Below, one piece after another: positions 3,957 to 53,178 of a stretch of DNA of 64,000 bases (positions are counted from its first letter, which is position 1; each line of letters opens with the position of its first letter). A model generated the notes under the pieces. It saw only the letters and a program-made list of their open reading frames with translations, did not search any database and was not told the DNA's origin. The translations under genes and the position numbers were made by a program. The DNA comes from an uncultured Gammaproteobacteria bacterium (GTDB lineage Bacteria > Patescibacteriota > Microgenomatia > Levybacterales > GWA1-39-11): positions 395,060-459,059 of the forward strand of contig CAYRKM010000001.1 in assembly GCA_964425075.1 (NCBI GenBank). Reading direction: 5' to 3'.

Positions 3957-5018
3957 ATGGTTAATTTTGAAGAATTCTCAAAAGCGTCTAGGGACCAAAT
4001 TATAAAAAATCTGGACGATTTTTTTGGGAAAAAGGCCAGCGAAGAACTTCCTAAGTATTTCTATGAACTTGAAATATTTTCTTCTCTTTCTCAAATGGTA
4101 TCCAAAGGAAAATTAGTGAGGGGAATACTGTTTTTATTTGCCTGCAAGATGTATGGAGTTAAGGAAGAAAAAGAATTGCTAGATATAGCTTGCGCTATAG
4201 AGCTACTTCATACTGGACTTTTAATTCATGATGATATTATTGATAACGACGATCTTCGTAGGGGGCTATCAACAATACATACATATTTTAAAGAAAAAGG
4301 TAAAAAAATTGGTGCTACGGATGCGTCGCATTATGGAGTATCAATGGGAATATTGGTAGGGGATGCGGCTTTTTATTGCGCAATTGAACTTTTGAGTAGG
4401 TATAGAGGAGCAAGAGCTATTAATCTTTTAGGCTACTATTCGCGTGAAGTAAATAGAGTAATTCTCGCAGAGGGTGCAGACAGTGAATTTGGTCAAACCA
4501 ATATTGAACCAACAAGCGAGGAAATAGAGGGAATATACCACTATAAAACAGCCAGATATACTTTCTCCATGCCATTTACAATGGCAGGAATTGTTGCAGG
4601 AATAACTGACGCACGACTTGAAATAATGGATAAGATTGGAGAATTAGCGGGGTTTATATTCCAATTAAAGGATGATGAGTTGGGTCTTCTTGGAACAGAG
4701 GAGAAAATTGGAAAACCAGTGGGTTCAGATGTTCGTGAGAATAAAAAAACTGCTATTAGAAAGCTTTTATATGAGATGGTAAATGATTCAGAGAAGGAAT
4801 TATTGAATACTTTATTTGGCAAACAGAACATAACCAGGGATGAAGTAAATAAAGTTAAAGAGCTAATTGAGAAGTATGAAATTCAGAAAAAGATAAACAT
4901 TCAGGTAGAGGAAATAATGGAAGAAATACATAAACTGTTTAATAATTTGGAAGTTGATGATGAATATAAAAAAGTTCTTCAGGAAATGTTAATATTTAAT
5001 ATAAAGAGAAAATATTAA
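3957..5018 (+). CDS. Polyprenyl diphosphate synthase (trans-isoprenyl diphosphate synthase family)
   Basis: First Asp-rich motif LLIHDDIIDNDDLRRG is present. A second Asp-rich region FQLKDDELG is also present. Confidence 0.75.
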   Translation: MVNFEEFSKASRDQIIKNLDDFFGKKASEELPKYFYELEIFSSLSQMVSKGKLVRGILFLFACKMYGVKEEKELLDIACAIELLHTGLLIHDDIIDNDDLRRGLSTIHTYFKEKGKKIGATDASHYGVSMGILVGDAAFYCAIELLSRYRGARAINLLGYYSREVNRVILAEGADSEFGQTNIEPTSEEIEGIYHYKTARYTFSMPFTMAGIVAGITDARLEIMDKIGELAGFIFQLKDDELGLLGTEEKIGKPVGSDVRENKKTAIRKLLYEMVNDSEKELLNTLFGKQNITRDEVNKVKELIEKYEIQKKINIQVEEIMEEIHKLFNNLEVDDEYKKVLQEMLIFNIKRKY

Positions 5019-10700: not shown

Positions 10701-11067
10701 CTGCTTTTTCGGGAGTTGTGGACGCACTGAATTGGGCAATTATTGTCGATACCGATTCATTGGAAATAGAATTAAGTGTTGAGAGTCCCTTCGTTCCTTT
10801 AATTGCATCTTCAAGTGGATTTGTTATCAGATCTTCAACATCTTTCGGGCTTGCTCCGGGAAGAACAGTTGTAACAGAAACAATTGGTAATTTTACTTCA
10901 GGATTGAGTCTTCTTGGCAAAGTAATAAAACTTGTGATACCTGCAACAACAATGATAAGTATGAGCAAAATAACAATTCTTATATTTGTTAAGAATTTTG
11001 CTTTAAATGTACTAAGAAGTTGAGGATCAAACTTTAGACGTGATAAATAGGAATTTTCGGATTTCAT
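7747..11067 (-). CDS. RND-family efflux transporter permease (AcrB/HAE1-like)
   Basis: 1106 aa with 12 TM helices. Conserved LALGLLVDDTIVVV motif and two large periplasmic loops. Confidence 0.8.
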   Translation of the reverse strand: MKSENSYLSRLKFDPQLLSTFKAKFLTNIRIVILLILIIVVAGITSFITLPRRLNPEVKLPIVSVTTVLPGASPKDVEDLITNPLEDAIKGTKGLSTLNSISNESVSTIIAQFSASTTPEKAEADMKSAVDSVNTLPNEAKDPFVKRFDFEDQPVWVFSIRGEDPASLLRFSRILKEKLEDDSIVDRVTISGLEEQEIQILADPEKVANNNINPIVLSQKINSLLNSYPAGNITTSDLSFPLGVNSSISSIENLRNTTLVVNDNQVKLSDIANVFETVKPGIQESFIANENTKPSKVATFYVYKNSTATIDNAVKKMRLIAENAVKPYHEHFEILTITDSSKLIDEEFGNLTESFRDTLILVFITFLIFLGIRQALIAVLTIPLTFLVTFTVINAAGLSLNFLTLFSLLLALGLLVDDTIVVVTGMTSYFRTRKFTPEQTGLLVWRDLIVPIWSTTITTAWAFLPLLIATGIIGEFIKTIPIVVATTLYASTAIAVLITIPLMIVILKLQVPRRVVILLKLIGALLCVYLLLTLFRENPFFPLILILFLILGFIAIRIRSTLSEKINNLVGKNLIATGKSYAGRFNERLIDIEHIAVYYKRLILRILNSKSARKKVIGIVIIFSVFAYLLVPFGFVTNEFFPKSEGDQLYVNLELPSGTNTDTATTNGLRLQEFLRKTPGIEYVTSEIGRGIDAGSQDFKSGSNLVLYTMALPEKNKRKIDSLKIAENLREKIKTIKVDGKITIIEQSGGPPAGAEVQVQLLGDDLTKLDQYADKIVGFLSKQAGIINVTKSINPGTSKLTFVPDHSKITKENVSYETLGLWMRTFTTGFTVKSVKFDQKESQDITFRMNTDTQSPEDLGRLAIPTTNNTYVPLLSLGDLVLETNPTSITHLDTKRTISVSSGVSVGYSVSEANSKLLKYVDGLNLPEGYSYQTGGANEENQKSVASILQAMMLAGILILATMVVQFRSYRKAVIVMLIIPVAVAGVLVVFALTGTPLSFPALIGILSLFGIVVTHAMFLVDKFNRNLSAHMPFKEAIADGAASRLEPVFLGSFTTIVGLIPISLSNPLWRGLGGAIIAGLSFSGIIMLFFIPVVFYIVYHKDYKN

Positions 11068-14669: not shown

Positions 14670-15935
14670 TTAATTTCCAAATAATCCAGGACGCTTTAAC
14701 TGCTCATTAGATAAAGTTGTAATAATTTCTTGTCCCTCTGTCAGTCCTTTCAATATTTCAGTTCTATCTTCTCCTCGGACTCCTGTAATCACGGGTACAT
14801 ATTTTATTCCATCTTTAGATTTTTTATCAGGCACTCTTACCGCCTTTCCTCCCTGGTATGGTTTGATTGCTGAATTTGGAACACTTAGTACATTTTTTAC
14901 TTCTTTTGTAATTATCCTTGCGTCTGCATTCATGCCTGAACGTAGTGCCCCATCGGTATTTTGAATATTTAAATATACGTTGTAACTAATAACTCCTCCA
15001 TTGTCTGTTCCAATTTCATCAACTCGACTAACTTCTGCCCTATATTTTTTATTTAGGACCGCACTTACATCAACTTCTGCTTTTTGTCCGGGTTTTATTT
15101 TTGCAATATCAGTTTCACTAAGTGCAATTACTATTTCACTAGCAAGTTCGCCATTAGAAATTAGAAGTACTGGAGATAGGGTTGTAGTGATTGATGCAGC
15201 AGTGGCTTTTACTGGACTACCTTCCCTAATTGATAGATTTGATATTTTTCCTGCAACAGGGGATTTTACAATTGCGTTTTGTGTTGCTTGATACAAAAGC
15301 CAAGTGGAAGAGACTTGGGCTTGTCCTTGTGCAATTGCGGTTACTTGATCTTTATATTTCTTTTCAGCTGCTAACCATTGGTCTTTGGCAATCTGAAATT
15401 CTGCTGCCGTTCTGTTTTGTTCATTTGGGGTGTCATCTCCATTTTCATATGTGCCATTTGTTGCAAGATTTCTAAAAGTATCCCATTCATCATACATTGT
15501 AGCTCTTAACGTATTAGCGCTTGACTGGGCTGCATTAAGTGTTGCTTGGGCTGCAAGATAATTTGCATATGCCGCATTGGCTTGTTGTTCAGTTGCTGAG
15601 CTTTGTACGACAAAAAGTTCCTGACCCTCAACAACGGAGTCTCCATTTGATATATATGATTCTGTAACAACACCATTGGTTGGAGAATATACTTCTGTGG
15701 TGCCGCTTGCCACAATATTTCCAGTTTCAGTAACTTCTTCTGTGATATCCGTAATTTCTGTTTTTGCGGTTGTGTAAGGTGGCTTTTTAGTAAGATTCCC
15801 AATTATATTTGAAACAATAACCGCTCCAATAATAAGTAGGACAATAATAATTATTTTTCTCTTCAAAGATGCTTTGAGAAAATAACTCCAAGCTCTTGTT
15901 GGAATTGAAAGTAGTTTTTTAATTTTAGGTTTCAT
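14670..15935 (-). CDS. Efflux periplasmic adaptor (MacA/HlyD-like) of the ABC pump
   Basis: TM anchor followed by coiled-coil and barrel domains. Start likely at MKPKIKK (15935). First gene of a three-gene operon. Confidence 0.7.
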   Translation of the reverse strand: MKPKIKKLLSIPTRAWSYFLKASLKRKIIIIVLLIIGAVIVSNIIGNLTKKPPYTTAKTEITDITEEVTETGNIVASGTTEVYSPTNGVVTESYISNGDSVVEGQELFVVQSSATEQQANAAYANYLAAQATLNAAQSSANTLRATMYDEWDTFRNLATNGTYENGDDTPNEQNRTAAEFQIAKDQWLAAEKKYKDQVTAIAQGQAQVSSTWLLYQATQNAIVKSPVAGKISNLSIREGSPVKATAASITTTLSPVLLISNGELASEIVIALSETDIAKIKPGQKAEVDVSAVLNKKYRAEVSRVDEIGTDNGGVISYNVYLNIQNTDGALRSGMNADARIITKEVKNVLSVPNSAIKPYQGGKAVRVPDKKSKDGIKYVPVITGVRGEDRTEILKGLTEGQEIITTLSNEQLKRPGLFGN

Positions 15936-16040
15936 ATACATATGTATGATTATATTTCGTTTGGATTTATATAGCTAGTAATTATAACTCATGGTTTTCA
16001 ATAAAAAAGAGATAATAGTGCTTTTCTATTGCCTTATGCC

Positions 16041-16069
16041 TTGACAGGCGAAAATTCATTTGGTAATAT
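16041..16069 (+). promoter_or_regulatory. Sigma70-like promoter
   Basis: TTGACA(17)TAATAT. Confidence 0.45.
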
Positions 16070-16090
16070 CCACATACTTTCGAATTGCTG

Positions 16091-16120
16091 CCCCGAATAC
16101 GTTCGGGGTTTTTTATTTTT
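16091..16120 (+). terminator. Intrinsic terminator-like hairpin + U-run directly upstream of the ORF start at 16125
   Basis: ccccgaa-tacg-ttcgggg followed by ttttttattttt. Oriented for the + strand. Confidence 0.5.
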
Positions 16121-16124
16121 AAAT

Positions 16125-16931
16125 ATGGAACAGAATCAAGCATTAGCACCAAAAAAAGTAGAAGTTACTTTTACACTCCCTAGCCTTCAAGGAATAGCCA
16201 TCGACATAAAACAAAAACTTTATTTACTTCTATCCAAAGCTATAACGCTTGCATATTCTGTATACAATCCATTAAGAAAGTCCGCTCCTAGTGAATTAAA
16301 CATAAAGCATTCTTTCGGTTTTCCAAAATTCTCTTTTAGTAAATTTAATTTTAGAAATTTCAACAGAAAGAAAGCAATGAAGATTGGCTTTCCACTTTTA
16401 ATAGGAGTACTTGCGCTTGTAGGGCTTGTAAGTATTGCAAGGGGATTACCAAATGCACAAAATAACCTTAATTCTTCTAGTGATAACATTAAAGTACCAG
16501 ATGCAACTTCGACAATAGAATTAAATCGTAAATTCGCTTTTCCATTAAGAGATGATAAGGGAAAAGAGGTTGGAAAATTTGATTTTATTGTAGAGCGTGC
16601 AGAACTTCGAAAACAAATTATTGTACAGGGAAAAAGAGCAACCGCTGTTGATGGAAGAATATTCCTAGTTTTTGATCTAAAAGTAGTAAATGATTTGAAA
16701 TTTCCTATGGAGCTTCCAACAAGAAATTTCATGAGAATTATTCTTAACAACAATAATAAAGAACTTTTGGCTCCCGATATCCACAATGATCCTGTTGAGG
16801 TTCAGGCAATATCAACAAAATACACTCGACTTGGGCTTGCAATTGACGAGAGTACTTCAAAAGAAACAATAAGAGTACAGGTTGGAGAAGTTGATGGGGA
16901 CAAACAAACCATCGAACTTAATTTCAAATAA
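16125..16931 (+). CDS. Hypothetical protein with internal signal/TM segment (alternative start 16377)
   Basis: Open frame from 16125. Strongly signal-peptide-like segment MKIGFPLLIGVLALVGLVSIARG at 16377. Beta-rich extracytoplasmic domain. Confidence 0.5.
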   Translation: MEQNQALAPKKVEVTFTLPSLQGIAIDIKQKLYLLLSKAITLAYSVYNPLRKSAPSELNIKHSFGFPKFSFSKFNFRNFNRKKAMKIGFPLLIGVLALVGLVSIARGLPNAQNNLNSSSDNIKVPDATSTIELNRKFAFPLRDDKGKEVGKFDFIVERAELRKQIIVQGKRATAVDGRIFLVFDLKVVNDLKFPMELPTRNFMRIILNNNNKELLAPDIHNDPVEVQAISTKYTRLGLAIDESTSKETIRVQVGEVDGDKQTIELNFK

Positions 16932-16960
16932 AAATCATTCGTTAAAGTTTGTAAAAGCAT

Positions 16961-17230
16961 ATGACCAAACTTTCAAATACTAGTTCCTCTACTAATAAAA
17001 ACAAACGTCAAAACTTGGTTTCTGAAATAAAGGAGGCATTGAAAAGTGTTTCTTATGGAAGTATTGAAATTTTTGTACAGAACAAAGTAGTAACCCAGAT
17101 AACAGTAAGGAATATCAAAAAAACCAGTGTTGAAATAGAAGATAGTGACGAATTATCTTCACAAGAAATTCATATGTTCCAAGATGAGGCAAAAAGAATA
17201 CGAAGAACAATTGTAAAAAGGGTTTCTTAA
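16961..17230 (+). CDS. YezD/DUF2292-like small protein
   Basis: YGSIEIFVQNKVVTQITVRNIKKT resembles the YezD motif. Confidence 0.4.
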   Translation: MTKLSNTSSSTNKNKRQNLVSEIKEALKSVSYGSIEIFVQNKVVTQITVRNIKKTSVEIEDSDELSSQEIHMFQDEAKRIRRTIVKRVS

Positions 17231-17330
17231 ATTGTATTTCTGTAAGGAAATCGTAAGTTTTTCATTTAGCCCTTGACACCAATATTTCTTTAGTATATAA
17301 GTTTAGTAAATCAAGAAAGCTGGCCGCAAA

Positions 17331-17381
17331 CGGAGGCTTCTTCACACAACTATTTTTGTGTGCGGAAGTCTCCGTTTTTTT
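17331..17381 (+). terminator. Long imperfect hairpin + T7 intrinsic terminator
   Basis: cggaggcttcttcacaca ... tgtgtgcggaagtctccg forms an ~18-bp stem (1 mismatch, 2 GU), followed by ttttttt. Confidence 0.6.
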
Positions 17382-17478
17382 GTTCTTTAGGGCTACCGAG
17401 AACAAAAATAGGCGGGAGAGTATGAAGTGCTCTCTATAAACGGGAAAGCTTTTTTAACGAGAGGAGGTGAAATAATAT

Positions 17479-18729
17479 ATGACAAATTTAAATAAACAAA
17501 TTTTCTCAGTAATTGCAGCTGGAACTATGGTTCTTAACATAGCTACTCCTGCATTTGCTGGAACCACTATTGAACTTTCAGGAAATGGTACTGAATCTGA
17601 TAACAAGGCTATTGTTAACCAGAACAGTAACACAACTGTTACACAATCCAATGTAGCTGATATCAAAAATAATGTTGATATTAAATCTAACACTGGAGGT
17701 AATGATGCTAATAGCAACACCGGAGGAAACGTAAAAGTAGAAACTGGAGATGCTACTTCAAATGTTACCGTTAAAAACACCGTTAACAGCAATGCTGCTA
17801 ATGTTGATTGTTGTGATACAGGAGATACTAACGTTCTAATTAGTGGAAATGGTGAAGATTCAGATAACTTTGTTAAATTGAATCAGAACCACGACACTAC
17901 ATTAACTCAAAGAAATGAGGCTAATGTAGAAAATGATGTTGACGTAGATTCTAACACCGGAGATAACGACGCAGAAGATAATACAGGTGGAGATGTTTCT
18001 ATCGAAACTGGAGATGCTAATGCAACCGTTAAAGTTGGCACAACTGCTAACGCTAACTGGGCACGTATTGGTGGATCTTCAAACGGCGGATCTCTTACAG
18101 CTAGAATCACTGGAAACGGAGAAGACAGTGACAACAAAATCAAATTAAACAATGGTGGAGATGTCACTCTAACTCAATGGAACCTTGCTGATATCGAGAA
18201 TGACGTAGATGTTGATTCCGACACCGGATACAACGACGCAAATGACAACACCGGAGGAGATGTAATGATCGAAACTGGAGATGCTGACACTGATGTAACC
18301 GTAGATAATATGGTTAACTTCAATGCAGCAGATGTTAACTGCGGATGTCTTCTTGACGATGTACTCGCAAAGATCTCTGGAAACGGAGAAGACTCAGACA
18401 ACAAGATCATTGCTAACCTTGGTGGAGACACCACGGCTACACAAGCTAATGAACTTGATTGTGCAGGACATCACGACAGCTGTGCTGACGTTGACGTAGA
18501 CGGCGACACTGGACACAATGATGCAAACGATAATACAGGGGAAGTTGATGCTGACTCTGATCCAAGCATTGAAACCGGAGACGCTGACGCAACCGTAAAA
18601 GTAAACAACTCAGGAAACAGCAATGCTTTCGGAGTTGATATGGATGATTTGGACCTTCCAGATTTTGGAGGACTTCACTTCAGCTTTAGCTTTGACTTAG
18701 GAGATCTTCTTGATCTTTTAAACGGTTAA
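17479..18729 (+). CDS. Secreted tandem-repeat protein (4 x ~90-aa repeats), paralog family member A
   Basis: Strong SD gaggaggtg. Signal peptide ...ATPAFAG. Four repeats with SGNGEDSDN...TQ.N.A.I.NDVDVDS.TG.NDA.DNTGGDV.IETGDA and terminal CC/CxC motifs. Acidic C-terminus. Confidence 0.8.
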   Translation: MTNLNKQIFSVIAAGTMVLNIATPAFAGTTIELSGNGTESDNKAIVNQNSNTTVTQSNVADIKNNVDIKSNTGGNDANSNTGGNVKVETGDATSNVTVKNTVNSNAANVDCCDTGDTNVLISGNGEDSDNFVKLNQNHDTTLTQRNEANVENDVDVDSNTGDNDAEDNTGGDVSIETGDANATVKVGTTANANWARIGGSSNGGSLTARITGNGEDSDNKIKLNNGGDVTLTQWNLADIENDVDVDSDTGYNDANDNTGGDVMIETGDADTDVTVDNMVNFNAADVNCGCLLDDVLAKISGNGEDSDNKIIANLGGDTTATQANELDCAGHHDSCADVDVDGDTGHNDANDNTGEVDADSDPSIETGDADATVKVNNSGNSNAFGVDMDDLDLPDFGGLHFSFSFDLGDLLDLLNG

Positions 18730-18824
18730 TTGGGAATTAAGTAGGGTGCTCTAGCTAGCACTTCGGCAGGAACACCCTACGAAACCCAAAATAGAATTAA
18801 GAATTAAAAATACACAAAACATAT

Positions 18825-21047
18825 ATGAATAACAAAAAAACAAGAAAATTACTGTCCACAGTATTAATACTAGTTATATTTTCAGCAAAACTTGCTTTTC
18901 CAATTGGTGCTTTAGCTCTTGATGCTCCAACTGCGCCGAGTGCACCTACTGCTCCAAGCGCTCCATCTGCTCCAACTGCGCCGAGTGCACCTACTGCTCC
19001 AAGCGCTCCATCTGCTCCAACTGCGCCAACTTCTCCCCCAGCACCTACTGCGCCAGTTGCTCCAACTGCGCCGAGTGCACCTACATTAGTAACTCCAACA
19101 CCAACACCCACAGAGACTACACAGGCGCAGCAACAATCAGCACCAAAAGAAAGCAGCAATGATATTCAAAACCAAGAAAATGAATCAAATACACAAGGTG
19201 GAAATGTGGGGGATACAACAATTGACACGGGAGATGCTACAAGTAACGGTACAATTTCAAATGTAGGAAATACAAATACAGCCTCAACTCCTGGAGGAAG
19301 TGGTGGAGGAGCCACAGTTGTAAATAGCGGAAATGGGGAGGACTCAACAAACACTGGAGCAGTAATAAGTTCAGATACTTCAACCACTAACCAGACTAAT
19401 TCAGCAACTATTAATAACACAATGAATCAAGGAGCAACAAGCGGAAATAACATTTCTGATAGTAATGTTGGAAATACAACCATTAATACTGGGGATTCAA
19501 ACACTAGCGGAACTATTATTAATGCAGTGAATACAAATGTTGATGGAATTGCAGTTGCCGAGTTCAATGTAGTAGATGATCATATTGGGGACATAATTCT
19601 CGACTTCGGAAATTCAAATTGTATCGCAGGATGCGGAGGAGAAACAGCAGTTATTAATACTGGAAATGGGGAGGACTCAACCAATACTGGAACTGTTGAC
19701 TCTACAACTACAGATAACACTTTCCAAACTAACACAGCAGGAATTGTAAATGACATGATTCTTGATTCTAACGCTGGAGACAATTCAGCATCTCACAATA
19801 CGGGTGGAGACAGCATTATAACAACGGGCGATGCTAATACGGCAGCAAATGTAATGAATTTGGTTAACAATAATATTGCAGGGAATGTGATATTGGGAGT
19901 CGTTAATATATTCGGAGACCTTATTGGAGATATCATTTTGCCAGAAAATCCATTTGCAAATTGTTCAACTTGTGTTGCAAATAACACAACAGTCGCAAAT
20001 ACAGGAAATGGCGAAGGTTCTACAAATGAAGCTACATTTACTAGCACCACAAATGATGGAACATTTCAATACAATGACGCAAGCATTCAGAATAACATAA
20101 TAAGCGATGCTAATTCAGGAGATAATTCAGCAAGCAAGAATACTGGAGGCAGTAGCAATATCGAAACTGGAGATACTAATACTGAGGTAGGAATATTGAA
20201 TATCGCAAACATGAATCTTGCGGGTGGGGATTGGTGGTTAGTAATCGTAAACGAAGCAGGACAATGGATCGGAAAGATATTGGGTGGAGACGGAAGCAAC
20301 GTAGCAGGTTCTAATGGACTTGAATTTATAGTAGATCCACTTACTGGGGCAGTAACAGCAAAGAATTCAGGAAATGGTGAAGGCTCAACCAACACAGCAG
20401 CAGTTAACCAGACAAACAATTCAACAACCAACCAAAGCAACACTGCAGCAATTACAAATAATCTTGACCTATCTGCTAATACCGGTGGAAACAGTACTAG
20501 TCACAACACTGGTGGTAACAACTCAATAGTAACTGGGGATGCTCACATAATCGCAAACATAGTTAACTTTGTTAACAATAATATAACTGGCAATGGTAGG
20601 CTCTTTGTAACAGTAGTGAATGTATTTGGAAGTTGGATGGGAGATTTGGTAACTCCTGGACAACATAAGGAAACAGCATCTGCACAAAATGGAGTAGGTG
20701 GATCAAACGGCTCAAATAATTCAACATCAACAGTTCAAGGTTCATTCGGAAGTTCGTCTAGCCTTGTTCAAGCAGAGAATGTGCTTTCACAAATCACAGG
20801 AAACGGCAACAATAACACTCTTGCATACGGAAGCGTTCAGGGTACAAACGACTCAAAACCACAAAATGATGCTACTGTTGCAAGCGTAGGGCAAGACGAC
20901 TCTGCGGCAGTAGCAGATAAGAATATCAATATTAATTTAGCATGGTTCCTTCTCTTAATTCCAGGGATGGGATTTGTGCTACTCGCAAAAAAATCGTTTG
21001 CTCCAGTTTCAAGCCTGGCGCTAAGAGGTATACATTTGTTTCTTTAA
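18825..21047 (+). CDS. Secreted tandem-repeat protein with PT/PS-rich linker, paralog B
   Basis: Signal peptide. (APTAPSAPS)n linker. Repeats contain NTGNGEDSTN, NTGGxSxIxTGDxNT and IFGDLIGDIILPE segments. C-terminal hydrophobic segment + KK. Confidence 0.8.
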   Translation: MNNKKTRKLLSTVLILVIFSAKLAFPIGALALDAPTAPSAPTAPSAPSAPTAPSAPTAPSAPSAPTAPTSPPAPTAPVAPTAPSAPTLVTPTPTPTETTQAQQQSAPKESSNDIQNQENESNTQGGNVGDTTIDTGDATSNGTISNVGNTNTASTPGGSGGGATVVNSGNGEDSTNTGAVISSDTSTTNQTNSATINNTMNQGATSGNNISDSNVGNTTINTGDSNTSGTIINAVNTNVDGIAVAEFNVVDDHIGDIILDFGNSNCIAGCGGETAVINTGNGEDSTNTGTVDSTTTDNTFQTNTAGIVNDMILDSNAGDNSASHNTGGDSIITTGDANTAANVMNLVNNNIAGNVILGVVNIFGDLIGDIILPENPFANCSTCVANNTTVANTGNGEGSTNEATFTSTTNDGTFQYNDASIQNNIISDANSGDNSASKNTGGSSNIETGDTNTEVGILNIANMNLAGGDWWLVIVNEAGQWIGKILGGDGSNVAGSNGLEFIVDPLTGAVTAKNSGNGEGSTNTAAVNQTNNSTTNQSNTAAITNNLDLSANTGGNSTSHNTGGNNSIVTGDAHIIANIVNFVNNNITGNGRLFVTVVNVFGSWMGDLVTPGQHKETASAQNGVGGSNGSNNSTSTVQGSFGSSSSLVQAENVLSQITGNGNNNTLAYGSVQGTNDSKPQNDATVASVGQDDSAAVADKNININLAWFLLLIPGMGFVLLAKKSFAPVSSLALRGIHLFL
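18925..19085 (+). repeat. 45-bp tandem repeat (2 perfect + 1-2 degenerate copies) encoding the PT-linker
   Basis: gctccaactgcgccgagtgcacctactgctccaagcgctccatct is repeated head-to-tail. Confidence 0.85.
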
Positions 21048-21051
21048 AATC

Positions 21052-22173
21052 ATGTTTAAGAAGGCAGTAATGTTCATAATCTGCCTGCCCATAGTTCACT
21101 TCGCACTTGCATTTCAAGTTAGAGCAGAAGAGATTAACCTTTCCGTTACTGGTAATGGTGAGGGTTCGTCAAATGCTACACAAGTTCAGAATAATACTAC
21201 TACGACAGTTACCCAAACCAACACAGCGGATATAAATAATAATGTAAATACGAATACTAACACTGGAGGAAATAATGCAACTGATAATAACGGAAATGCT
21301 TCAATTCAAACAGGCGATTCGACAACTTCTACTACTATTAATAATGAAAATATCAATTCAAATTCAGCAAATATTAATCCATGCTGCAATGGTAATTCTG
21401 TAAATATTGAGATTTCAGGAAATGGTAGTGATTCCAACAATTTAGTTAATGCTTCAAATAATAATACAAACAACATCTACCAAACTAACTACGCAAATAT
21501 CTACAACAACGCAATGACAAATTCTAACACCGGATACAACAGCGCAGACAGCAATATTGGAAATGTATACATAAAGACTGGAAATATTTCAGCAACTACA
21601 AAAATCAATAACAAAAATATTAATAATAGCTATGCTGCAGGAGGTAGCGTTGATTCCTCTTTTTATGCTGTTATAAAAAATAATGGAGAAGATTCTGAGA
21701 ACAAAATTATTTTCAACAAGGATAATGAAAATAATCTAATTGTTACAAATATTGCAAACATATCAAATAATGTAGAGCACAATTTGAATACTGGATACAA
21801 TAGTGCAAATGGAAATTTGGGTGACGTTGCAATAATTACAGGAGATATTACAAGCGATGTTGAAATCAATAATGAAAATATAAATAGTAGTACTGCAATT
21901 CTTCCATGCTTAACATGCGAAAAACCAGAAGATCCTGAAACTCCACCTACTAACCCACCAAGCACACCACCTACATCAGTTGGTGGTGGAGGTGGTGGTG
22001 ATGGAAGATCAGACGGTAGGTCTGATGGAAAAGGTGGTTCGGTATTGGGTGCTATGTTGCCTGCAACAGGACTTCCTTTTATGTTCTACGCTACGCTTCT
22101 TCTCTTCTTCCTTTTCCTCTCAGGTATCTTTCTGCGTTATCACTCCGGAGTTTCTCCTCCAGTTGTAGCTTAG
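21052..22173 (+). CDS. Secreted repeat protein with C-terminal LPATG sortase sorting signal, paralog C
   Basis: Signal peptide. SGNGEGSSN/NTGGNNA...IQTGDST repeats and CC/CxxC motifs. C-terminus LPATG + hydrophobic stretch + RYHSG basic tail. Confidence 0.8.
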   Translation: MFKKAVMFIICLPIVHFALAFQVRAEEINLSVTGNGEGSSNATQVQNNTTTTVTQTNTADINNNVNTNTNTGGNNATDNNGNASIQTGDSTTSTTINNENINSNSANINPCCNGNSVNIEISGNGSDSNNLVNASNNNTNNIYQTNYANIYNNAMTNSNTGYNSADSNIGNVYIKTGNISATTKINNKNINNSYAAGGSVDSSFYAVIKNNGEDSENKIIFNKDNENNLIVTNIANISNNVEHNLNTGYNSANGNLGDVAIITGDITSDVEINNENINSSTAILPCLTCEKPEDPETPPTNPPSTPPTSVGGGGGGDGRSDGRSDGKGGSVLGAMLPATGLPFMFYATLLLFFLFLSGIFLRYHSGVSPPVVA

Positions 22174-22183
22174 TATTTTAAAC

Positions 22184-22212
22184 CAAAGCCCCGCTAAGCG
22201 GGGTTTTTTCTT
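22184..22212 (+). terminator. Rho-independent terminator
   Basis: aaagccccgcTAAgcggggtttttt directly after the stop of 21052..22173. Confidence 0.8.
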
Positions 22213-22226
22213 GGTTTAAGCATAGT

Positions 22227-22255
22227 TGCATTATGTTTGTTTCGTGTTTAATATA
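22227..22255 (+). promoter_or_regulatory. Sigma70-like promoter for the sortase gene
   Basis: TTGCAT(17)TAATAT. Confidence 0.4.
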
Positions 22256-22294
22256 CCTTTATGAAGAAGCAAGGCTTGTTCACAATCAGAGATT

Positions 22295-22852
22295 ATGAGT
22301 AGAAAACTTCAGAGAAATATCGGCAACGCTCTAATGGCGTTTTCTTTTTTAGGTTTGGTATTAATTTATTACCCAATAGCAAAAGAATATTTATTTCCTC
22401 CTACTTATACCCAAGAGGAGAAGAAAAGTCTTGGATTTTCTGTCGAAATTCCATCAATTAATGTTTTTTCAAAAGTAATCGAAAATGTAGACCCTTTCAA
22501 TCAGGCAGAATACATAGAGTCCCTTAAGGACGGAGTAGCACATGCGAAAGGCACTTCTTTGCCTGGTGAAAAAGGAACTATATATCTTTTTGCTCACTCC
22601 TCGGACGTACCATGGAGAATTACAAGATATAACACTGCATTTTTTAAATTAGGACAGGTGAAAAATGGGGAGGAAATACTAATTCAACACAAAGGCAGGG
22701 AGTATAAATATAAAGTGTTTACTCAAAAAACAGTTTGGCCAAGCGAAGTTAAATACCTAACTGAGTCTCAAGGTGACGTATTAATTCTTCAAACCTGTAC
22801 ACCAGTAGGAACTTCCTTTAAAAGACTTCTTGTATTTGCAAAACCCCTCTAG
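22295..22852 (+). CDS. Sortase-family transpeptidase
   Basis: N-terminal TM anchor. Candidate catalytic His in IYLFAHS. Active-site motif LILQTCTP (TLxTC). Conserved Arg in FKRLLVFA. Confidence 0.8.
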   Translation: MSRKLQRNIGNALMAFSFLGLVLIYYPIAKEYLFPPTYTQEEKKSLGFSVEIPSINVFSKVIENVDPFNQAEYIESLKDGVAHAKGTSLPGEKGTIYLFAHSSDVPWRITRYNTAFFKLGQVKNGEEILIQHKGREYKYKVFTQKTVWPSEVKYLTESQGDVLILQTCTPVGTSFKRLLVFAKPL

Positions 22853-24604: not shown

Positions 24605-25456
24605 CTATGCTTCACAGAAAGATTCTGCTTCAGCGTTACAATAATCATTGTCTGCGCCTCCGTTGGCATCATCTGTTCCTCCATCACCTTTTAGTGAATC
24701 AGAACCTACTCCTCCAAAAAGATGGTCGCTTCCAGAAGCTCCTTTAATAGAGTCGCTTCCATTCTCGCCATACAACCAATCGTTTCCTTCATTTCCCTGA
24801 ATAGCATCACTACCATTTCCACCGAGAACTACATCATTACCGCCTTGTCCGTGTATGGCATCACTTCCATTTCCTCCTACAATACAATCATTGCCTCCCT
24901 TACCGTTAATGACGTCACTTCCTCCTTTTCCAAGGATTAAGTCAGGACCGCTAGTACCATTTAGTACTTCACTTGCTTCTGTTCCTTCAATGACGTTGTA
25001 TTCAACTTCATCATCACATTGCTCAGGAATGTTTGAAGGAGGCGTTGCCTCAATCTCATCCGCTGATCCGGCAGGCATTGTAAAGGTTGAACAATTACCA
25101 TCAGTTGTTCCGCTGATAGATCCATCGTTTGCTATTGTTCCATTACCATTTAATGTATAGCCGAAGTTTGCACCGGTATAAACAAGAGCAAAGGTAATAC
25201 TGCTTCCATCTATTGTGCCGTCAATATCCCATGTGTATGAAGCATCTGCGTCAAAATCACCTGTTCCGGCAAACACTCCGTTTACGTCCTGAGAAACCGT
25301 ATTGAGAGTGTGAGCATAGTCAGACCCTCCGCAATTAAAAACTATAGCTTTCGGTGCTGTTAATTCCCAGTTTGGGGCTGCGAATGCTGGCATTGCAACA
25401 TTTCCAAAAAGAAGAGCTGCTGCAGCTCCTGTCGTTAAAATTTTTTTTATATTCAT
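24605..25456 (-). CDS. Secreted protein with RTX-type calcium-binding beta-roll repeats
   Basis: SD gagggggtga. Signal peptide MNIKKILTTGAAAALLFGNVAMPAFAAP. Multiple GGxGxD nonapeptides (GGNGSDAIHGQGGNDVVLGGNGSDAIQG...). Confidence 0.75.
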   Translation of the reverse strand: MNIKKILTTGAAAALLFGNVAMPAFAAPNWELTAPKAIVFNCGGSDYAHTLNTVSQDVNGVFAGTGDFDADASYTWDIDGTIDGSSITFALVYTGANFGYTLNGNGTIANDGSISGTTDGNCSTFTMPAGSADEIEATPPSNIPEQCDDEVEYNVIEGTEASEVLNGTSGPDLILGKGGSDVINGKGGNDCIVGGNGSDAIHGQGGNDVVLGGNGSDAIQGNEGNDWLYGENGSDSIKGASGSDHLFGGVGSDSLKGDGGTDDANGGADNDYCNAEAESFCEA

Positions 25457-25865
25457 TTTTTTCACCCCCTCTCGTGTAAAATCGCCCTGCCATTCCATAT
25501 GAACTTTCTAAGCATTTACTGCATCAATGCAGGCACAAAAAAACAACCATATCGGTTGTTTAGCAATTTGTGTTGTATAAAAATTTCATAGGCAGGTTCA
25601 TGTTTTTTCTCCTGCCTCTTCTCGCGAAAGCTCAAATTAGGCAGGTTAAATTAGCTACTGCCCTTTATCTAAAAGAAGATTTAGGCAGATTCAAATAAAA
25701 AAATAAGGAATAACGCTTAAGTGGGCAAGAATGAATACTTAGCAATTAACAGAGTATTGTATTAGTAGTTTTATTAAAAAAACGTTGATGTGTCAAGGTA
25801 AGCAAAATGGATACATTTGGATTAAAAAGTGTCAATATTCTTTTCACGGTTTTAGAGTGGTTAGC

Positions 25866-25895
25866 TTGACTTCAAGCGCTATTTTCTGCTAAAAT
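25866..25895 (+). promoter_or_regulatory. Sigma70-like promoter
   Basis: TTGACT(18)TAAAAT. Confidence 0.5.
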
Positions 25896-25951
25896 GAACA
25901 CAATAAAGTGTTATATTAGGTTCTTGCTAAATATAACTAAAGTAATGTGCG

Positions 25952-25976
25952 CGGTGGGACAACCCACCGTTTTTTA
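25952..25976 (+). terminator. Intrinsic terminator-like hairpin + T6 immediately upstream of the nusA ATG
   Basis: cggtggg-acaa-cccaccg followed by tttttt. The ATG is 4 nt later. Confidence 0.6.
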
Positions 25977-25979
25977 AAT

Positions 25980-26978
25980 ATGCCAGCAATACAAAGAAGC
26001 GAGTTTGCGCTCGCACTTAACCAAATAGCAACCGAAAGGGGAGTGGATCCTCAAGATATTCTTGAGAGCATAAAAACTGCAATTTTAGCGGCTTACAAAA
26101 AAGATCACGTCCCAGCAACTCTTACAGAAGATGAAGTTGATGAAACTGTTTACTCTGCTGAAATTAACCCTCAAACTGGAGAAACCAAGATAATTCATGA
26201 AGGAATTGACGTAACGCCTCCAGGTTTTGGACGAATTGCAACACAAACAGCAAAGCAAGTTTTGCTTCAAAAAATAAGAGAAAGAGAGAAAGACGCAGTC
26301 ATGTCAGAATATTCTAAAAGAATTGGGACCGTAGTAAATGGAATGATTTTGCGATTTGCAGGACCCACTATAATCGTTGATATTGGAAAAGCTGAGGCTA
26401 TTATGCCTCAAGCACAAAGAATACAAAACGAGCAGTATTTTTTAAATAAAAAAATCGCTGTATATATAGTAGAAATTGCAGAGGATGAGAAAAGAGGACG
26501 GGAAATTATTGTGTCCCGTACTCACAATGGTCTTTTGGAAGGACTTTTGCGCCGTGAGGTTCCAGAAGTTGCTGCAGGAAATGTAATAATTAAGGCAATT
26601 ATAAGAGAACCAGGTTCAAGAGCTAAAATCGCAGTACATTCAGACCAATCTGGGATTGATCCAGTTGGAAGCTGTGTTGGACAAAAAGGAGTCCGAATTC
26701 AGGCTGTAATTGATGCAGTTGACGGACTTGAGAAGATTGATGTCATCCAGTGGAATCAAGATCCTGTTAGGTTTATTACTAACGCGTTGTCTCCCGCAAA
26801 GAATTTAACCGTTGAGGTAAATGAAAAGGAGAAAATAGCAAAAGTTACAGCTCCTCAGGAGGAATTGCCTCTTATTATTGGTCGTGAAGGACAAAACGTA
26901 AGACTTGCTTCAAAACTCACTGGTTATAATATTGAAGTAGAAGGAAGTAATGAGCCAATTGCTGAAGTTGAAGCTTAG
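25980..26978 (+). CDS. nusA: Transcription termination/antitermination factor NusA
   Basis: N-terminal domain, S1 domain and two KH domains. Conserved order nusA-infB. Confidence 0.9.
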   Translation: MPAIQRSEFALALNQIATERGVDPQDILESIKTAILAAYKKDHVPATLTEDEVDETVYSAEINPQTGETKIIHEGIDVTPPGFGRIATQTAKQVLLQKIREREKDAVMSEYSKRIGTVVNGMILRFAGPTIIVDIGKAEAIMPQAQRIQNEQYFLNKKIAVYIVEIAEDEKRGREIIVSRTHNGLLEGLLRREVPEVAAGNVIIKAIIREPGSRAKIAVHSDQSGIDPVGSCVGQKGVRIQAVIDAVDGLEKIDVIQWNQDPVRFITNALSPAKNLTVEVNEKEKIAKVTAPQEELPLIIGREGQNVRLASKLTGYNIEVEGSNEPIAEVEA

Positions 26979-34591: not shown

Positions 34592-36274
34592 ATGATGGAA
34601 CAAATGGAAAATTCTTCTAATTCGGTTTCGATAGTTCCCATCGGCGGCATAGGTACAGTTACAAAGAATATGTACCTTTATATTTATGGCAATGAGATTC
34701 TTATTGTGGATTGTGGAATGGGTTTTCCAGATCCCTCAACTCCGGGTGTCGACTTTCTGGTTCCCGATATTTCTTATCTAAAAAAACTAACCGCTGAAGG
34801 TAAGAAGAAAATTGTTGGACTTCTTTTAACTCACGGACATGAGGATCATATTGGCGGAGTGCCTTTTGTTCTTGATCAATTGCCTCAATTTCCAATTTAT
34901 GCAACACCGCTCACTGCAGCATTCGTAAATGAAAAACTTAAAGATTTTGGGCTTAATCAGAGGGCAAAGGATGTTGAATTTAAGAAGGATATGAAGATTG
35001 GCAGCTTTACTGTTCGCTTCCTTCACATTACTCATTCGGTTCTTGATACCTCTAATATTTTTATAAAAACCCCGGCGGGTAACTTTTATCACGGGAGTGA
35101 TTATAAATTTGATCTCACACCAGTTGATGGACATTTATCAGATCTTCATGGTATTGCTGGCACAGCCCAAGAAGGAGTTTTGTGCATGCTATCAGATTGT
35201 CTTGGAGCAGAGCGTCAAGGGCATTCTGAATCAGAAAGCAAGATAACTGATAGTTTCGAAAAAGAATTTAGGAGAAGTAAAGGAAAAATATTTATTTCAA
35301 CTTATTCTTCAAATATTTCAAGAATGAATCAAGCAATTGAGGTGGCATTAAAGTTTAACCGCAAGATTTGTTTTATGGGGCGTTCATTCACAAAATCTCG
35401 GGATGTTGGAAAACAGCTTTCATACATGAAATATCCGCCCAACTCAGAGATAAAACCACCTCAAGTAAAAAGTATGGATCCTTCAAAAGTTATGATATTA
35501 ATTCCCGGCAATCAAGGCCAAGAAACTTCAGCTATGGTTCGTGTTGCTTCGGATAATGATCGTGATATTAAAATTGATAGAAATGACACGGTTATTTTTT
35601 CTTCTGATCCGATTCCAGGAAATGAATTAAATGTTTATAACCTCATTGATACTATAGCCAAAAAAGGAGCACGCATTGTGCATTCTGACACAAATCCTGA
35701 TTTTCATGTTTCGGGGCATGGTTCCCAAAACGACATAAAGCTGCTTGCTTCCCTAACGACTCCAAAATTTACACTTCCAATTGGTGGAACCTATCGTCAC
35801 ATGGTGGCGTTTAAAGAATTGATGCGGGAGATGGGTTATCAGGATAACAATATTATTTTGCCTGAAAATGGGCAGGAAATTGTGTTTACAGGAGGAAGTT
35901 ACAAGTTTGGAATCAAGGTTCCATTATCTACTGTGTATGTTGATCAGATAACTGGTGAGGAGATGGAGAAATTTGTACTTATGGATAGGCAAAAAATTGC
36001 AAAGGAGGGAATAATGATAATTATTGCCGAAGTTGAAACAGAAAGTGGAAGAATTGTAGGCACGCCCGATATTCTTTCTCGTGGATTTGTTTTTCCTGAA
36101 AAAGACCAATTTGCCAAAAAACTAGCAGAGCAATTAGTGAAAGATATGGGCGAGAAAAGTGCAAAAGCTACTCATTTTGGATACTATAGAAAAATCATAC
36201 AGCAAAATGCCGAAGGGCTTTTATATAGAATGAAGCGAGAGCCATTAGTAATACCTGTCATTGTTGAAGTTTAG
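34592..36274 (+). CDS. rnj: Ribonuclease J (metallo-beta-lactamase/beta-CASP)
   Basis: HGHEDHIGG motif, beta-CASP region and C-terminal domain. Confidence 0.85.
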   Translation: MMEQMENSSNSVSIVPIGGIGTVTKNMYLYIYGNEILIVDCGMGFPDPSTPGVDFLVPDISYLKKLTAEGKKKIVGLLLTHGHEDHIGGVPFVLDQLPQFPIYATPLTAAFVNEKLKDFGLNQRAKDVEFKKDMKIGSFTVRFLHITHSVLDTSNIFIKTPAGNFYHGSDYKFDLTPVDGHLSDLHGIAGTAQEGVLCMLSDCLGAERQGHSESESKITDSFEKEFRRSKGKIFISTYSSNISRMNQAIEVALKFNRKICFMGRSFTKSRDVGKQLSYMKYPPNSEIKPPQVKSMDPSKVMILIPGNQGQETSAMVRVASDNDRDIKIDRNDTVIFSSDPIPGNELNVYNLIDTIAKKGARIVHSDTNPDFHVSGHGSQNDIKLLASLTTPKFTLPIGGTYRHMVAFKELMREMGYQDNNIILPENGQEIVFTGGSYKFGIKVPLSTVYVDQITGEEMEKFVLMDRQKIAKEGIMIIIAEVETESGRIVGTPDILSRGFVFPEKDQFAKKLAEQLVKDMGEKSAKATHFGYYRKIIQQNAEGLLYRMKREPLVIPVIVEV

Positions 36275-37218
36275 TATTCTCTTCCCTCATAGATCTCTTT
36301 TTTTACGAATTCATATAGTTTGGCTGCTTTTTCCTGGCCAATAAATTCGACATACCCTTCCAAAAACTCTTCTCTACCCCTAGTAAACTGTTCACCAGCA
36401 ACAGCTAGTAATTCTGTCAATTTGATTCCACCGTACATGATTCTTATTTGAGTGGATGAAGGTCTAGGTTTGTTTCTTGTTTGTGTTAGTTCAAAACCCG
36501 AAGAACTTTCTTGTTGAGCAACATATTGATTTAGTTTCTCAGTTTTAAAAATAGACTGAAGTTGTCTTTCGTCTTCAATTTCTAAAACTTGCATTACTTC
36601 CCTTTCAAGACTATTTAATCGAGGGTCTATTGCGCGATGAACAAATTCATGGACAATATTTTGTTTTGCCTTGTCTTGTTCCAAAAAGGATTGTCCAAGT
36701 GATTTTTTATTAAAAAATATTAATCCACTAGAATTATCTGCGGACCTACAATAAAGTCCTCCTTTATTTTTCATTTGGGGAGTTCTTAGGTCCCAATCTG
36801 CCAAGGAAACAGCAAGCGGCAGAAGTCTTCCACTTGTTTCTCTTGGTTGATAAAAAAATGGAGGAAGCACATCAAGAGCTTTGGACAACGCTTTGATGCG
36901 AGGCGCATCCCAGTGGACCCTATGATTTTTTGTAAACTCTATGCTGTCATTTGTACTCGTAAAACTTAAATTTGTATCTGGAGATATTAATATTATTCCA
37001 TATTTGTTTTCAACTTCAGTTTTCATTTGATCAGCATCCATTCCAAAAGTGCCGGTTTCTAATCCTTCTACAAGACCTCTGCTAATAGAGGGTCTGTTGG
37101 TATGAGCATTTATAACATCTATTCCCGTAAGACCACCTACTATAATTCCTCCCACTGCGCTTAAAAAACGCCTTCTACTCATTGTTGATGTTGTGTATTT
37201 TGGGGCCTCTTCTGACAT
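36271..37218 (-). CDS. Tat-signal secreted HExxH zinc metallopeptidase-like protein
   Basis: Twin-arginine motif SRRRFLSAVGG followed by a hydrophobic region. HEFVH zinc-binding motif. Confidence 0.5.
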   Translation of the reverse strand: MSEEAPKYTTSTMSRRRFLSAVGGIIVGGLTGIDVINAHTNRPSISRGLVEGLETGTFGMDADQMKTEVENKYGIILISPDTNLSFTSTNDSIEFTKNHRVHWDAPRIKALSKALDVLPPFFYQPRETSGRLLPLAVSLADWDLRTPQMKNKGGLYCRSADNSSGLIFFNKKSLGQSFLEQDKAKQNIVHEFVHRAIDPRLNSLEREVMQVLEIEDERQLQSIFKTEKLNQYVAQQESSSGFELTQTRNKPRPSSTQIRIMYGGIKLTELLAVAGEQFTRGREEFLEGYVEFIGQEKAAKLYEFVKKEIYEGREY

Positions 37219-40959: not shown

Positions 40960-41023
40960 TTGAAAGTTTATTATTCATGGTCTATAGTTTTATAAACTGC
41001 CCTCGGCAGTTTTTTTGTAGAAA

Positions 41024-41893
41024 ATGAATATCCACGAAGGAGAGCAAGATATGCAACAAATCGGACAAGAATTTGAAGTACGTACTCCCCAAAATTTTAT
41101 GGAGATGATTGAGAGGAAGTGGGGTGAAGGAAAGTACGTATGTGTAGGGTTAGATAGTGAGCTTGGAAGAATTCCCGAGTCAATGCAAGGGAGTGTTTCT
41201 GCATTTAATCATGAGATTATTGATGCTACTCACGATCTTGTAGCTGCTTATAAACCTAACTTTGCATTTTATGAAGCATTAGGGGCCAAGGGAATTGAGA
41301 TTCTTGTTGATACAGTTCAGTATATAAAGGAAGCGCATCCTGATATTCCTGTGATTCTCGATGCGAAAAGAGCCGATATTGGAAATACCAATAATGGTTC
41401 TGTTGAATTTGCCTTCAAAGAATGTGGTGCGGATGCGATTACAGTAAATCCTTATTTGGGAAGAGTAGCGTTAGAACCATTTTTGCAGCAAGCAAATAAA
41501 GGTATTATTGTTTTAGCACGTACCTCAAACGATGGTGCAGGAGAATTTCAGGATCTTATGATTGATGGGAGACCATTATATCTGCATGTGGCTGAACATG
41601 CTGTTAATGAGTGGAATGAAAATGGCAATATTGGGCTAGTGATGGGGGCAACAAGTCCTGAAGAATTAGGGCGAGTCAGGGATCTTTTTCCTGACGTACC
41701 TCTTTTGATTCCAGGAATTGGAGCACAAGGTGGGGATCCTGAAAAAGTGATACACGCGGCAAGGCATAGAATGCTTATAAATAATTCACGAGGTATAATT
41801 TTTGCCTCTGGAGGAAAAGATTTTGCCCAAGCAGCTCGACAAGCTACTCTTAATACGCAGGTTCAGATAGCTGCAGGGATGAGTTCATCATGA
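41024..41893 (+). CDS. pyrF: Orotidine 5'-phosphate decarboxylase (type 2)
   Basis: LDAKRADIGNT motif. Overlaps the start of pyrE-like gene (ATGA). Confidence 0.8.
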   Translation: MNIHEGEQDMQQIGQEFEVRTPQNFMEMIERKWGEGKYVCVGLDSELGRIPESMQGSVSAFNHEIIDATHDLVAAYKPNFAFYEALGAKGIEILVDTVQYIKEAHPDIPVILDAKRADIGNTNNGSVEFAFKECGADAITVNPYLGRVALEPFLQQANKGIIVLARTSNDGAGEFQDLMIDGRPLYLHVAEHAVNEWNENGNIGLVMGATSPEELGRVRDLFPDVPLLIPGIGAQGGDPEKVIHAARHRMLINNSRGIIFASGGKDFAQAARQATLNTQVQIAAGMSSS

Positions 41894-53066: not shown

Positions 53067-53095
53067 TTGACAAACTTCGTCATATGCTGTATAGA
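53067..53095 (+). promoter_or_regulatory. Sigma70-like promoter upstream of rpoB
   Basis: TTGACA(17)TATAGA. Confidence 0.45.
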
Positions 53096-53121
53096 TTAAC
53101 ATCACGTATTAAAAAAGATGG

Positions 53122-53178
53122 AGGTCATTGACCTTTCATCCTTTTTTTTCGTGAGTTGGAGGCCAACTTCTCTTTTTT
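53122..53178 (+). promoter_or_regulatory. rpoB leader with two small hairpins each followed by T-runs (possible attenuator)
   Basis: aggtc-att-gacct followed (after 7 nt) by T8. gttgg-agg-ccaac followed by T6 3 nt before the ATG. Confidence 0.3.

Follow-up and report, generated by a model that had tools for sequence, protein, structure and literature searches.

A conserved promoter-hairpin-U-run leader before a Microgenomates-specific membrane-protein gene: a candidate transcription attenuator

Introduction

Why would a near-consensus promoter be followed almost at once by what looks like an intrinsic terminator, when the gene that it serves begins only a few nucleotides further on? The question is raised by one locus in a stretch of 64,000 nucleotides from an uncultured bacterium (the window, to which all coordinates refer). 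The combination looks wasteful unless either the short RNA that it would produce or some form of regulation matters. The first-pass annotation of this DNA described the layout and offered three readings: a transcription attenuator, an independent small RNA unit, and a 5' stabilizing stem-loop with an A/U-rich ribosome landing site in place of a Shine-Dalgarno (SD) sequence. To our knowledge, gene regulation is almost unexplored in CPR/Patescibacteria, whose genomes are tiny and contain few recognizable regulators. Here, we examine the leader, its counterparts before orthologous genes and similar modules elsewhere in the window.

Results

Genomic setting and anatomy of the leader

The window has a G+C content of 32 to 44%; its genes include nusA, rpoB, rpoC, a short infB (493 aa) and a large number that encode hypothetical proteins. 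The leader precedes the gene for a 268-aa single-pass membrane protein that is specific to Microgenomates, with 760 homologs, and whose family matched no Pfam or NCBIfam entry. The homologs that carry a source name are from Candidatus Levybacteria, and related loci come from Levy-, Woese-, Roizman- and Daviesbacteria, which are Microgenomates of the CPR/Patescibacteria. A gene identical to that of the window was found in SRR14271365 and SRR14271370, and relatives occur in groundwater data sets such as those of the Hainich wells. Many of the related records (L001-L160) bear the title "uncultured Gammaproteobacteria bacterium", although by gene content and similarity they belong with Levybacteria/Microgenomates; the titles are probably placeholders or taxonomic errors of the source assemblies.

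In about 70 of 80 related loci, the membrane-protein gene adjoins a gene for a small DUF2292 protein (Pfam PF10055), the second gene of the unit, and about as many contain a cassette that continues with genes for two to three large secreted repeat proteins and for one more protein and ends with a sortase gene. This six-gene cassette, present in the window as well (Table 1), probably specifies a sortase-dependent surface structure. Just downstream of the membrane-protein/DUF2292 pair, three related loci (L044, ~4281-4380; L051, ~10862-10960; L080, ~10709-10810) have a strong promoter, 47 to 60 nt and then a conserved hairpin, AGGCACCUCACAnnUAUGUGUGGUGCUU, with a U-run and no ORF behind it; these units are a candidate small RNA gene.

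Table 1. Positions of the features discussed, in window coordinates
Feature	Position	Strand	Details
-35 hexamer	16041-16046	+	TTGACA, read directly
Extended -10	16061-16069	+	TGg 16061-16063, closing the 17-nt spacer; TAATAT 16064-16069
Predicted transcription start	16075-16077	+	From promoter geometry, ~7 nt past the -10
CUGCC word	16088-16092	+	Overlaps hairpin 5' arm
CUGCC-bearing leader RNA stretch			ACUUUCGAAUUGCUGCCCCG
Terminator-like hairpin	16090-16109	+	GCCCCGAA-UACG-UUCGGGGU; 3' arm 16102-16109
U-run	16110-16120	+	TTTTTATTTTT; as RNA, UUUUUAUUUUU
AAAT (AAAU)	16121-16124	+	Followed by ATG 16125
268-aa membrane protein	16125-16931	+	First gene of unit
DUF2292 protein	16961-17230	+	Second gene of unit
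Surface-protein/sortase cassette	16125-22852		Secreted "ISGNG"-repeat proteins 17479, 18825; further protein 21052; sortase 22295
Secreted repeat-protein leader	17273-17381	+	TTGACA-17-TATAAG 17273-17301; 44-nt hairpin 17331-17374, -26.9 kcal/mol; U7
RTX-repeat gene	24605-25498	-
RTX-repeat leader	25498-25796	-	~290 nt; TTGACA 25796-25791; (C)CUGCCUA words 25688, 25644, 25595; hairpin 25561-25541 and U7
nusA-infB leader	25866-25975	+	TTGACT-18-TAAAAT 25866-25895; hairpin GCGGUGGG-ACAA-CCCACCGU 25951-25970, -14.7 kcal/mol; U6
nusA	25980-26978	+	ATG 25980
pyrF-pyrE leader	40960-41017	+	TTGAAA-17-TATAGT 40960-40988; hairpin AACUGCCCUCGGCAGUU 40995-41011 and U-run; ATG 41024
pyrF-pyrE	41024-42567	+
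rpoB leader	53067-53149	+	TTGACA-17-TATAGA 53067-53095; A-run/hairpin/U8 53111-53149, -12 kcal/mol; ATG 53182
Predicted leaderless examples	36271-37218	-
	44277
	45033
	51404
	61465-61950	-

The promoter had been read as TTGACA-17-TAATAT, and we found it as described, with an extended TGg in addition. The hairpin begins 20 nt past the promoter, and the T-rich run, which had been said to end 4 nt before the ATG, does so. The stem, earlier counted as 7 bp, comprises eight pairs (five G-C, one G-U and two A-U) around a 4-nt loop. Its calculated energy, the check that had been proposed, is -12.6 kcal/mol (z = -2.6), a value equaled by only 2 of 200 shuffled sequences. Being G+C-rich, within the range of about 5 to 14 bp and closed by a short loop, the stem has the form of an intrinsic terminator, and the U-tract begins at the base directly after it, as in such terminators. 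With the promoter 20 nt upstream of the terminator and the ATG 15 nt downstream, all on the same strand, the placement relative to the predicted start is that of an attenuator. As the earlier annotation had stated, no plus-strand gene lies upstream: the neighboring HlyD-like gene (14670-15941) is on the minus strand and diverges, so that no plus-strand transcript is available to be terminated at 16090-16120.

The start codon is well defined, since the N-terminus (M-x-x-N/H...KKV..T.TLP) is conserved across the protein family, which identifies ATG 16125 as the true start. Counted from the predicted transcription start, the leader would be ~49 nt long, has no SD sequence before the ATG and would carry a single-stranded 5' tail of ~13 nt ahead of the hairpin. 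Both the minimum-free-energy and the centroid folds of the leader show the terminator and no antiterminator. A search for a sensor domain (riboswitch, T-box or leader peptide) in the leader was negative, with no Rfam match at the gathering score or at E <= 10. Rfam gave no matches at the gathering score in the whole window, permissive scans of the membrane-protein, nusA and rpoB leaders returned only noise (snoRNA and miRNA models at 10 to 23 bits), and no tRNA or tmRNA was found near the leaders. We found neither an antiterminator nor a candidate regulator for the 16041-16124 leader. With only ~13 nt before the hairpin and no alternative fold, read-through of a terminator at this position would have to be set by proteins.

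Two other arrangements were considered and rejected. A leaderless promoter might be hidden within the U-run, where TATTTT is found 5 nt ahead of ATG 16125; the orthologs, however, have no -10-like box at a constant position. Antitermination by reiterative transcription, a known mechanism of the pyrG type, was ruled out at this leader, as the predicted start has no G-run.

Elsewhere in the window, comparable hairpins with U-runs stand at true gene ends, at 22187-22205 (-12.9 kcal/mol) and, on the minus strand, at 23923-23901 (-13.8 kcal/mol). In this genome, then, such a signal seems to serve for termination.

Conservation among orthologous leaders

We compared 81 leaders, from the window and from 80 fetched loci that encode relatives of the 268-aa protein. 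The promoter (TTGAC(A)-17-TAnnAT) is present in 71 to 74 of them, mostly with an extended TG. The hairpin and U-run are found in about 36 to 40 of the 81 and are absent from the remainder. Where present, the hairpin starts 10 to 21 nt past the -10, which is 3 to 14 nt past the predicted +1. The stems differ between species while complementarity is kept (GCCCCG/CGGGGC, GCCCCC/GGGGGU, GCCCGA/UCGGGC, GCCUC/GAGGC, GCUCUG/CAGAGC, AACUGUCC/GGACAGUU and AAACUGCUC/GAGCAGUUU), and the loops range from 3 to 12 nt; compensatory changes of this kind before orthologous genes are what an attenuator would lead one to expect. A realignment with a covariance model gave a covariation score of 0.168 versus 0.121 in shuffles, 0 of 500 of which reached it; since the subfamilies do not share one register of the 3' arm, the pair counts from this model are noisy and were given little weight, and the stems of individual sequences were used instead.

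The layout could in principle be a functionless juxtaposition in A+T-rich intergenic DNA, and promoter-like hexamer pairs do occur in the window at chance frequency (50 versus 53 expected). However, the layout has been kept across dozens of species with <50% identity between their proteins, and in close relatives (58 to 75% protein identity) the DNA from the -35 to the ATG is ~90% identical, whereas the DNA upstream of the -35 cannot be aligned. We consider chance an extremely unlikely explanation; as judged from these comparisons, it is conservation and not the hexamer matches that lifts the module above chance. Terminator-like sites numbered 29 in the window versus 14 expected. In a census of 1.41 Mb of related DNA, a compact terminator lay within 70 nt past a strong promoter in 16 of 164 cases outside the membrane-protein family, compared with 0.97 expected.

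Hairpin and U-run tend to occur together. In 72 leaders, both were present in 32, the hairpin alone in 4, the U-run alone in 13 and neither in 23 (Fisher p = 6e-6, kinship ignored), and the U-run begins no more than 2 nt from the end of the stem in 30 of 36 hairpin leaders. This tie between U-run and stem argues that termination is the selected property. Two sublineages (L003/L010, compared with L001, and L004-6, compared with L002/L007) have lost the 3' arm together with the U-run while keeping the promoter and the 5' arm, which leaves a leader of roughly 18 nt. In this clean joint loss, hairpin and U-run behave as a single unit that can be dispensed with, which is how an intrinsic terminator would be expected to behave; that the hairpin is missing from about half of the orthologs likewise marks it as dispensable, a point against the attenuator. 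The distance from the U-run to the ATG, on the other hand, varies from 4 to 30 nt in the membrane-protein leaders, and the nusA leader of one locus (L012) has its terminator >100 nt from the ATG. The immediate abutment on the start codon, to which the first-pass annotation had drawn attention, is therefore not a conserved feature; we read it as a reflection of compact genomes and not as a constraint.

These observations bear on the idea that the hairpin protects the mRNA from 5'-end-dependent decay and that the U/A-rich stretch recruits ribosomes through protein S1, replacing an SD sequence, with any termination being incidental. Hairpins that stabilize mRNAs in this way are known from the ompA, aprE and ermC leaders, and the likeness lies in a stable hairpin near the 5' end of the mRNA for a probably abundant envelope protein; the near-consensus promoter also suggests a highly expressed envelope gene. 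The translational setting agrees with the idea. An SD-like word precedes 4 of 53 window genes, compared with 13.9% of random ATGs, and in 11 of the 53 a TAnnnT box (at least five of six positions) ends 4 to 11 nt before the ATG, compared with 4.5% of controls. The scarcity of SD sequences and the closeness of -10 boxes to start codons suggest that much of the genome is expressed from leaderless mRNAs (examples in Table 1), with the SD GGAGGTGA used by a minority of genes. Microgenomates keep the anti-SD sequence, and CPR bacteria keep an S1 protein with three to four domains (PMC9297842).

The part of this proposal that concerns an SD-poor genome was borne out, but the U-run is fixed to the stem at whatever distance the ATG lies, and most orthologs without the hairpin have neither U-run nor SD, yet retain the gene and its promoter. 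Stabilizing stem-loops need no adjoining U-run and must sit within a few nucleotides of the 5' end; here, the presence of the U-run covaries with the hairpin, and the predicted 5' tail of ~13 nt in the window (3 to 14 nt in the orthologs, counted from the predicted starts) is long for a 5'-end protector. Moreover, the similar module before the secreted repeat protein has 100 nt behind its U7, followed by a proper SD (GGAGGTGA) and ATG 17479. A stabilizing and ribosome-recruiting role as the main function seems to us improbable, if by no means negligible, and it could coexist with attenuation.

A third proposal was that the locus makes an independent small RNA, here a trans-acting product of ~40 nt, with the downstream gene expressed by leakage only. 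A consensus promoter and an efficient-looking terminator would indeed give an abundant short RNA, and its 5' tail (ACUUUCGAAUUG) is conserved in close relatives. Across the family, however, nothing of the tail is conserved except (A)ACUGCC, and a covariance model run over the 1.41 Mb finds the element essentially only before the membrane-protein family; neither a conserved single-stranded seed nor occurrence independent of one gene was found, as would be expected of a trans-acting RNA. In addition, the terminator is absent in about half of the species, in which no discrete small RNA would be possible. With its 5' part unconserved beyond close relatives and the element bound to one gene family, we hold this proposal to be quite unlikely.

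The CUGCC word

The leader RNA also contains a nearly invariant short word that the first-pass annotation, while correct on the promoter, hairpin and U-run layout, had missed, along with the instances at 17273-17381 and 40960-41017. CTGCC occurs in 45 of 71 family leaders, and a further 12 have CTGCT and 6 CTGTC; the expectation is 1.8%, and the word is found at 5 of 164 other strong promoters. In 33 hairpin leaders, the T and G of the word are invariant and both flanking C residues are at least 90% conserved; the C and U are conserved even where they fall outside the stem. Most family leaders, with or without a hairpin, have CUGCC(C), CUGCU or CUGUC 8 to 20 nt past the -10, although over the whole family this distance extends from 8 to >30 nt. 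Since the word is kept whether or not there is a hairpin, another function may be primary.

It is not a general feature of the genome: AACTGCC is not enriched as a repeated word (9 matches versus 6.4 expected), and CUGCC is only mildly favored in 576 other upstream regions (41 sense versus 29 antisense). Pairing with the start-codon region or the early coding sequence was rejected, because no consistent complement was found, and a role as SD substitute was rejected on account of a word-to-ATG distance that ranges from 8 to 62 nt in leaders without a hairpin. No 16S rRNA gene, whose 3' end might pair with CUGCC, was found in the fetched loci.

A repressor might instead recognize the inverted repeat or CTGCC as a DNA operator just downstream of the promoter. 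The conserved word does adjoin a conserved promoter, and some leaders (L074, L039 and L048) have two to three copies 9 to 13 bp apart. Against this, the distance from the -10 to the word is variable, the spacing of copies is irregular (5 to 28 nt), the stems change in sequence and the loops in length while complementarity is kept, and a U-run follows the stem. Variable spacing, retained complementarity and a U-run are typical features of RNA signals, whereas a palindromic operator would be fixed; we regard the operator as very unlikely.

A sequence-specific RNA-binding factor would be the most economical idea to account for conservation of the word. In its strongest form, CUGCC(C), 4 to 11 nt into the transcript, would be the primary element, a site for a Microgenomates RNA-binding regulator that would control the CPR-specific sortase/surface-protein cassette; the word would have been built into the terminator in about half of the species, where binding would cause antitermination, and would act on translation or stability elsewhere. 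Candidates for the regulator would be the neighboring small DUF2292 protein or a specialized elongation factor. We offer this version tentatively and think it rather unlikely to hold as a whole.

Hairpins with CUGCC-type 5' arms are also found in the leaders of pyrF (40995), the RTX-repeat gene (25688-25595, minus strand) and, at L012 and L013, secreted repeat proteins, which may hint at a small regulon. In the long leader of the RTX-repeat gene, two of the three (C)CUGCCUA words are paired with GGCAG 25 to 35 nt downstream, and the hairpin with U7 stands 35 nt before the ATG.

The same module before other genes

The first-pass annotation had reported the same layout before nusA and, more weakly, before rpoB. 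For nusA this holds, with the coordinates of the hairpin and the ATG amended as in Table 1. The module is present in 14 of 14 loci that contain nusA (13 others and the window), as cTTGACT-17/18-TAAAAT or TACAAT followed by GGUGG(G)...(C)CCACC and a U-run. In 13 aligned leaders, the five pairs of the GGUGG/CCACC core are invariant and the outer pair covaries between U-A and C-G. The window leader has an additional AU-rich hairpin, GUUAUAUUAGGUUCUUGCUAAAUAUAAC (25902-25937), between promoter and terminator; its closest relatives (L001-L008) have no room for it, their terminators lying 7 to 26 nt past the -10 versus 55 nt in the window.

Before rpoB, which follows mltG/yceG in the window, the A-run, hairpin and U-run could be verified, whereas a second small hairpin at 53153-53169 folds no better than shuffled sequences (z = -0.3). 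Promoter, hairpin and U-run lie upstream of rpoB in nearly all of the related metagenomic contigs listed, although in close relatives, judged by reading the sequences, the -10 boxes are imperfect and the stems mismatched. In more distant CPR genomes (L096-L132 and L159), the rpoB leader contains a nearly invariant element, GAGGCGAACGUUCAUUGUUCGCUUC, then UUUUUGUCGUUC (also given as GAGGCGAACGUUCAUUGUUCGCUUC-UUUUUG), ~30 to 60 nt before the ATG and after TTGACA-17-TATAAT. Conservation of both loop and stem in these leaders suggests a protein-binding site.

Two further instances were found in the window. The hairpin of the pyrF-pyrE leader begins at the predicted transcription start, and this leader is a candidate pyrimidine-gene attenuator without a leader peptide. 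The hairpin at 17331-17374, before the secreted repeat protein, may have two roles, as terminator of the two-gene unit before it and as attenuator of the unit that follows; its promoter is less certain, because TATAAG lacks the final T.

Comparison with known systems

The window nusA leader invites comparison with the rimP-leader, which we take to be Rfam family rimP (RF01770). Naville and Gautheret (2010) described the rimP-leader as a premature terminator that precedes rimP-nusA-infB and has a G-rich 5' arm, a C-rich 3' arm, a conserved GGG..CCC, a U-stretch and no antiterminator, located 4 to 130 nt from the start codon, and NusA was proposed as the effector (PMC2965389). The leaders described here are likewise short and essentially a terminator, with a conserved stem sequence, no antiterminator and a variable distance to the start codon, and the window nusA leader (GGUGGG...CCCACC and a U-run) fits the published description. 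It differs in that there is no rimP gene and the element directly precedes nusA, and the Rfam rimP covariance model gave no match in 25840-26000 at E <= 10. The 16041-16124 leader is less similar, with a C-rich 5' arm, which is the opposite polarity, and an unrelated, lineage-specific membrane-protein gene behind it. In Bacillus subtilis, autoregulation by NusA through a leader terminator is established, according to the summary of Mondal et al. (2016) in PMC12288461; as described there, an intrinsic terminator in the 5' leader determines the amount of transcription into the gene, which is what we predict for the window nusA. On the strength of that summary, the circuit would supply a natural feedback for the nusA instance but no obvious logic for the membrane-protein gene.

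In model bacteria, nusA, rpoB and pyrFE are regulated by attenuation, and classical attenuators stand before rpoB in the rplL-rpoB intergenic region of Escherichia coli and before the pyrimidine genes pyrBI and pyrE. The same gene classes, rpoB and pyrF-pyrE, carry a hairpin and U-run in the window; the difference is that each window terminator stands directly behind a promoter of its own, and that neither a leader peptide nor a preceding ribosomal-protein operon is present. For the cassette, a parallel is the pil1 sortase-pilus operon of Streptococcus gallolyticus, in which a premature terminator lies upstream, basal expression comes from read-through and a leader peptide with GCAGA repeats mediates ribosome-dependent antitermination (PMC3894217). 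The order of promoter, stem-loop terminator, surface-protein genes and sortase gene is common to both, but the 16041-16124 leader is too short to encode a leader peptide.

Discussion

Of the three readings proposed at the outset, the attenuator is the best supported: the element has all of the sequence features of an intrinsic terminator, a conserved promoter lies upstream, and hairpin and U-run are gained or lost together. The reading also draws on the fact that the same module precedes nusA, rpoB and pyrFE, which attenuation regulates in model bacteria. We put the probability at roughly 0.55 that 16090-16120 is a promoter-proximal intrinsic terminator that acts as an attenuator without an antiterminator structure, with read-through set by a protein factor. 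The transcription start, the termination itself and any regulator are what we infer from sequence comparison. Under the proposed mechanism, the sigma-70-type promoter would start the ~49-nt leader, which lacks an SD sequence, and a fraction of the polymerases would terminate in the U-run, yielding a ~40-nt RNA. The remaining polymerases would read through into the membrane-protein and DUF2292 genes at the head of the surface-protein/sortase cassette. The extent of read-through might be set by NusA or NusG, or by a specific factor that binds CUGCC(C) in the 5' arm and blocks formation of the hairpin.

The element is real and conserved, and it is ordinary in kind, being a premature terminator in a 5' leader, while its members are new. 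What appears to be new is the leader motif of the Microgenomates-specific membrane-protein gene, together with nusA and rpoB leaders by which classical circuits would be extended to the CPR. Since premature termination in 5' leaders is a well-established principle, the finding adds to known biology and overturns nothing. The membrane-protein and CPR rpoB leaders are candidates for new cis-regulatory RNA motifs, as no Rfam family matched them in the window scans.

Judging from the window, genes without leaders or SD sequences seem to exist alongside a few leadered ones in a Levybacteria-type genome, and each leader of the latter (nusA, rpoB, pyrFE and the surface-protein/sortase cassette) seems to open with a consensus promoter followed by an intrinsic terminator. 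If these are attenuators, autoregulatory circuits of the classical kind would reach into the CPR by way of the nusA and rpoB leaders, and factor-dependent termination would be a main regulatory lever in these organisms.
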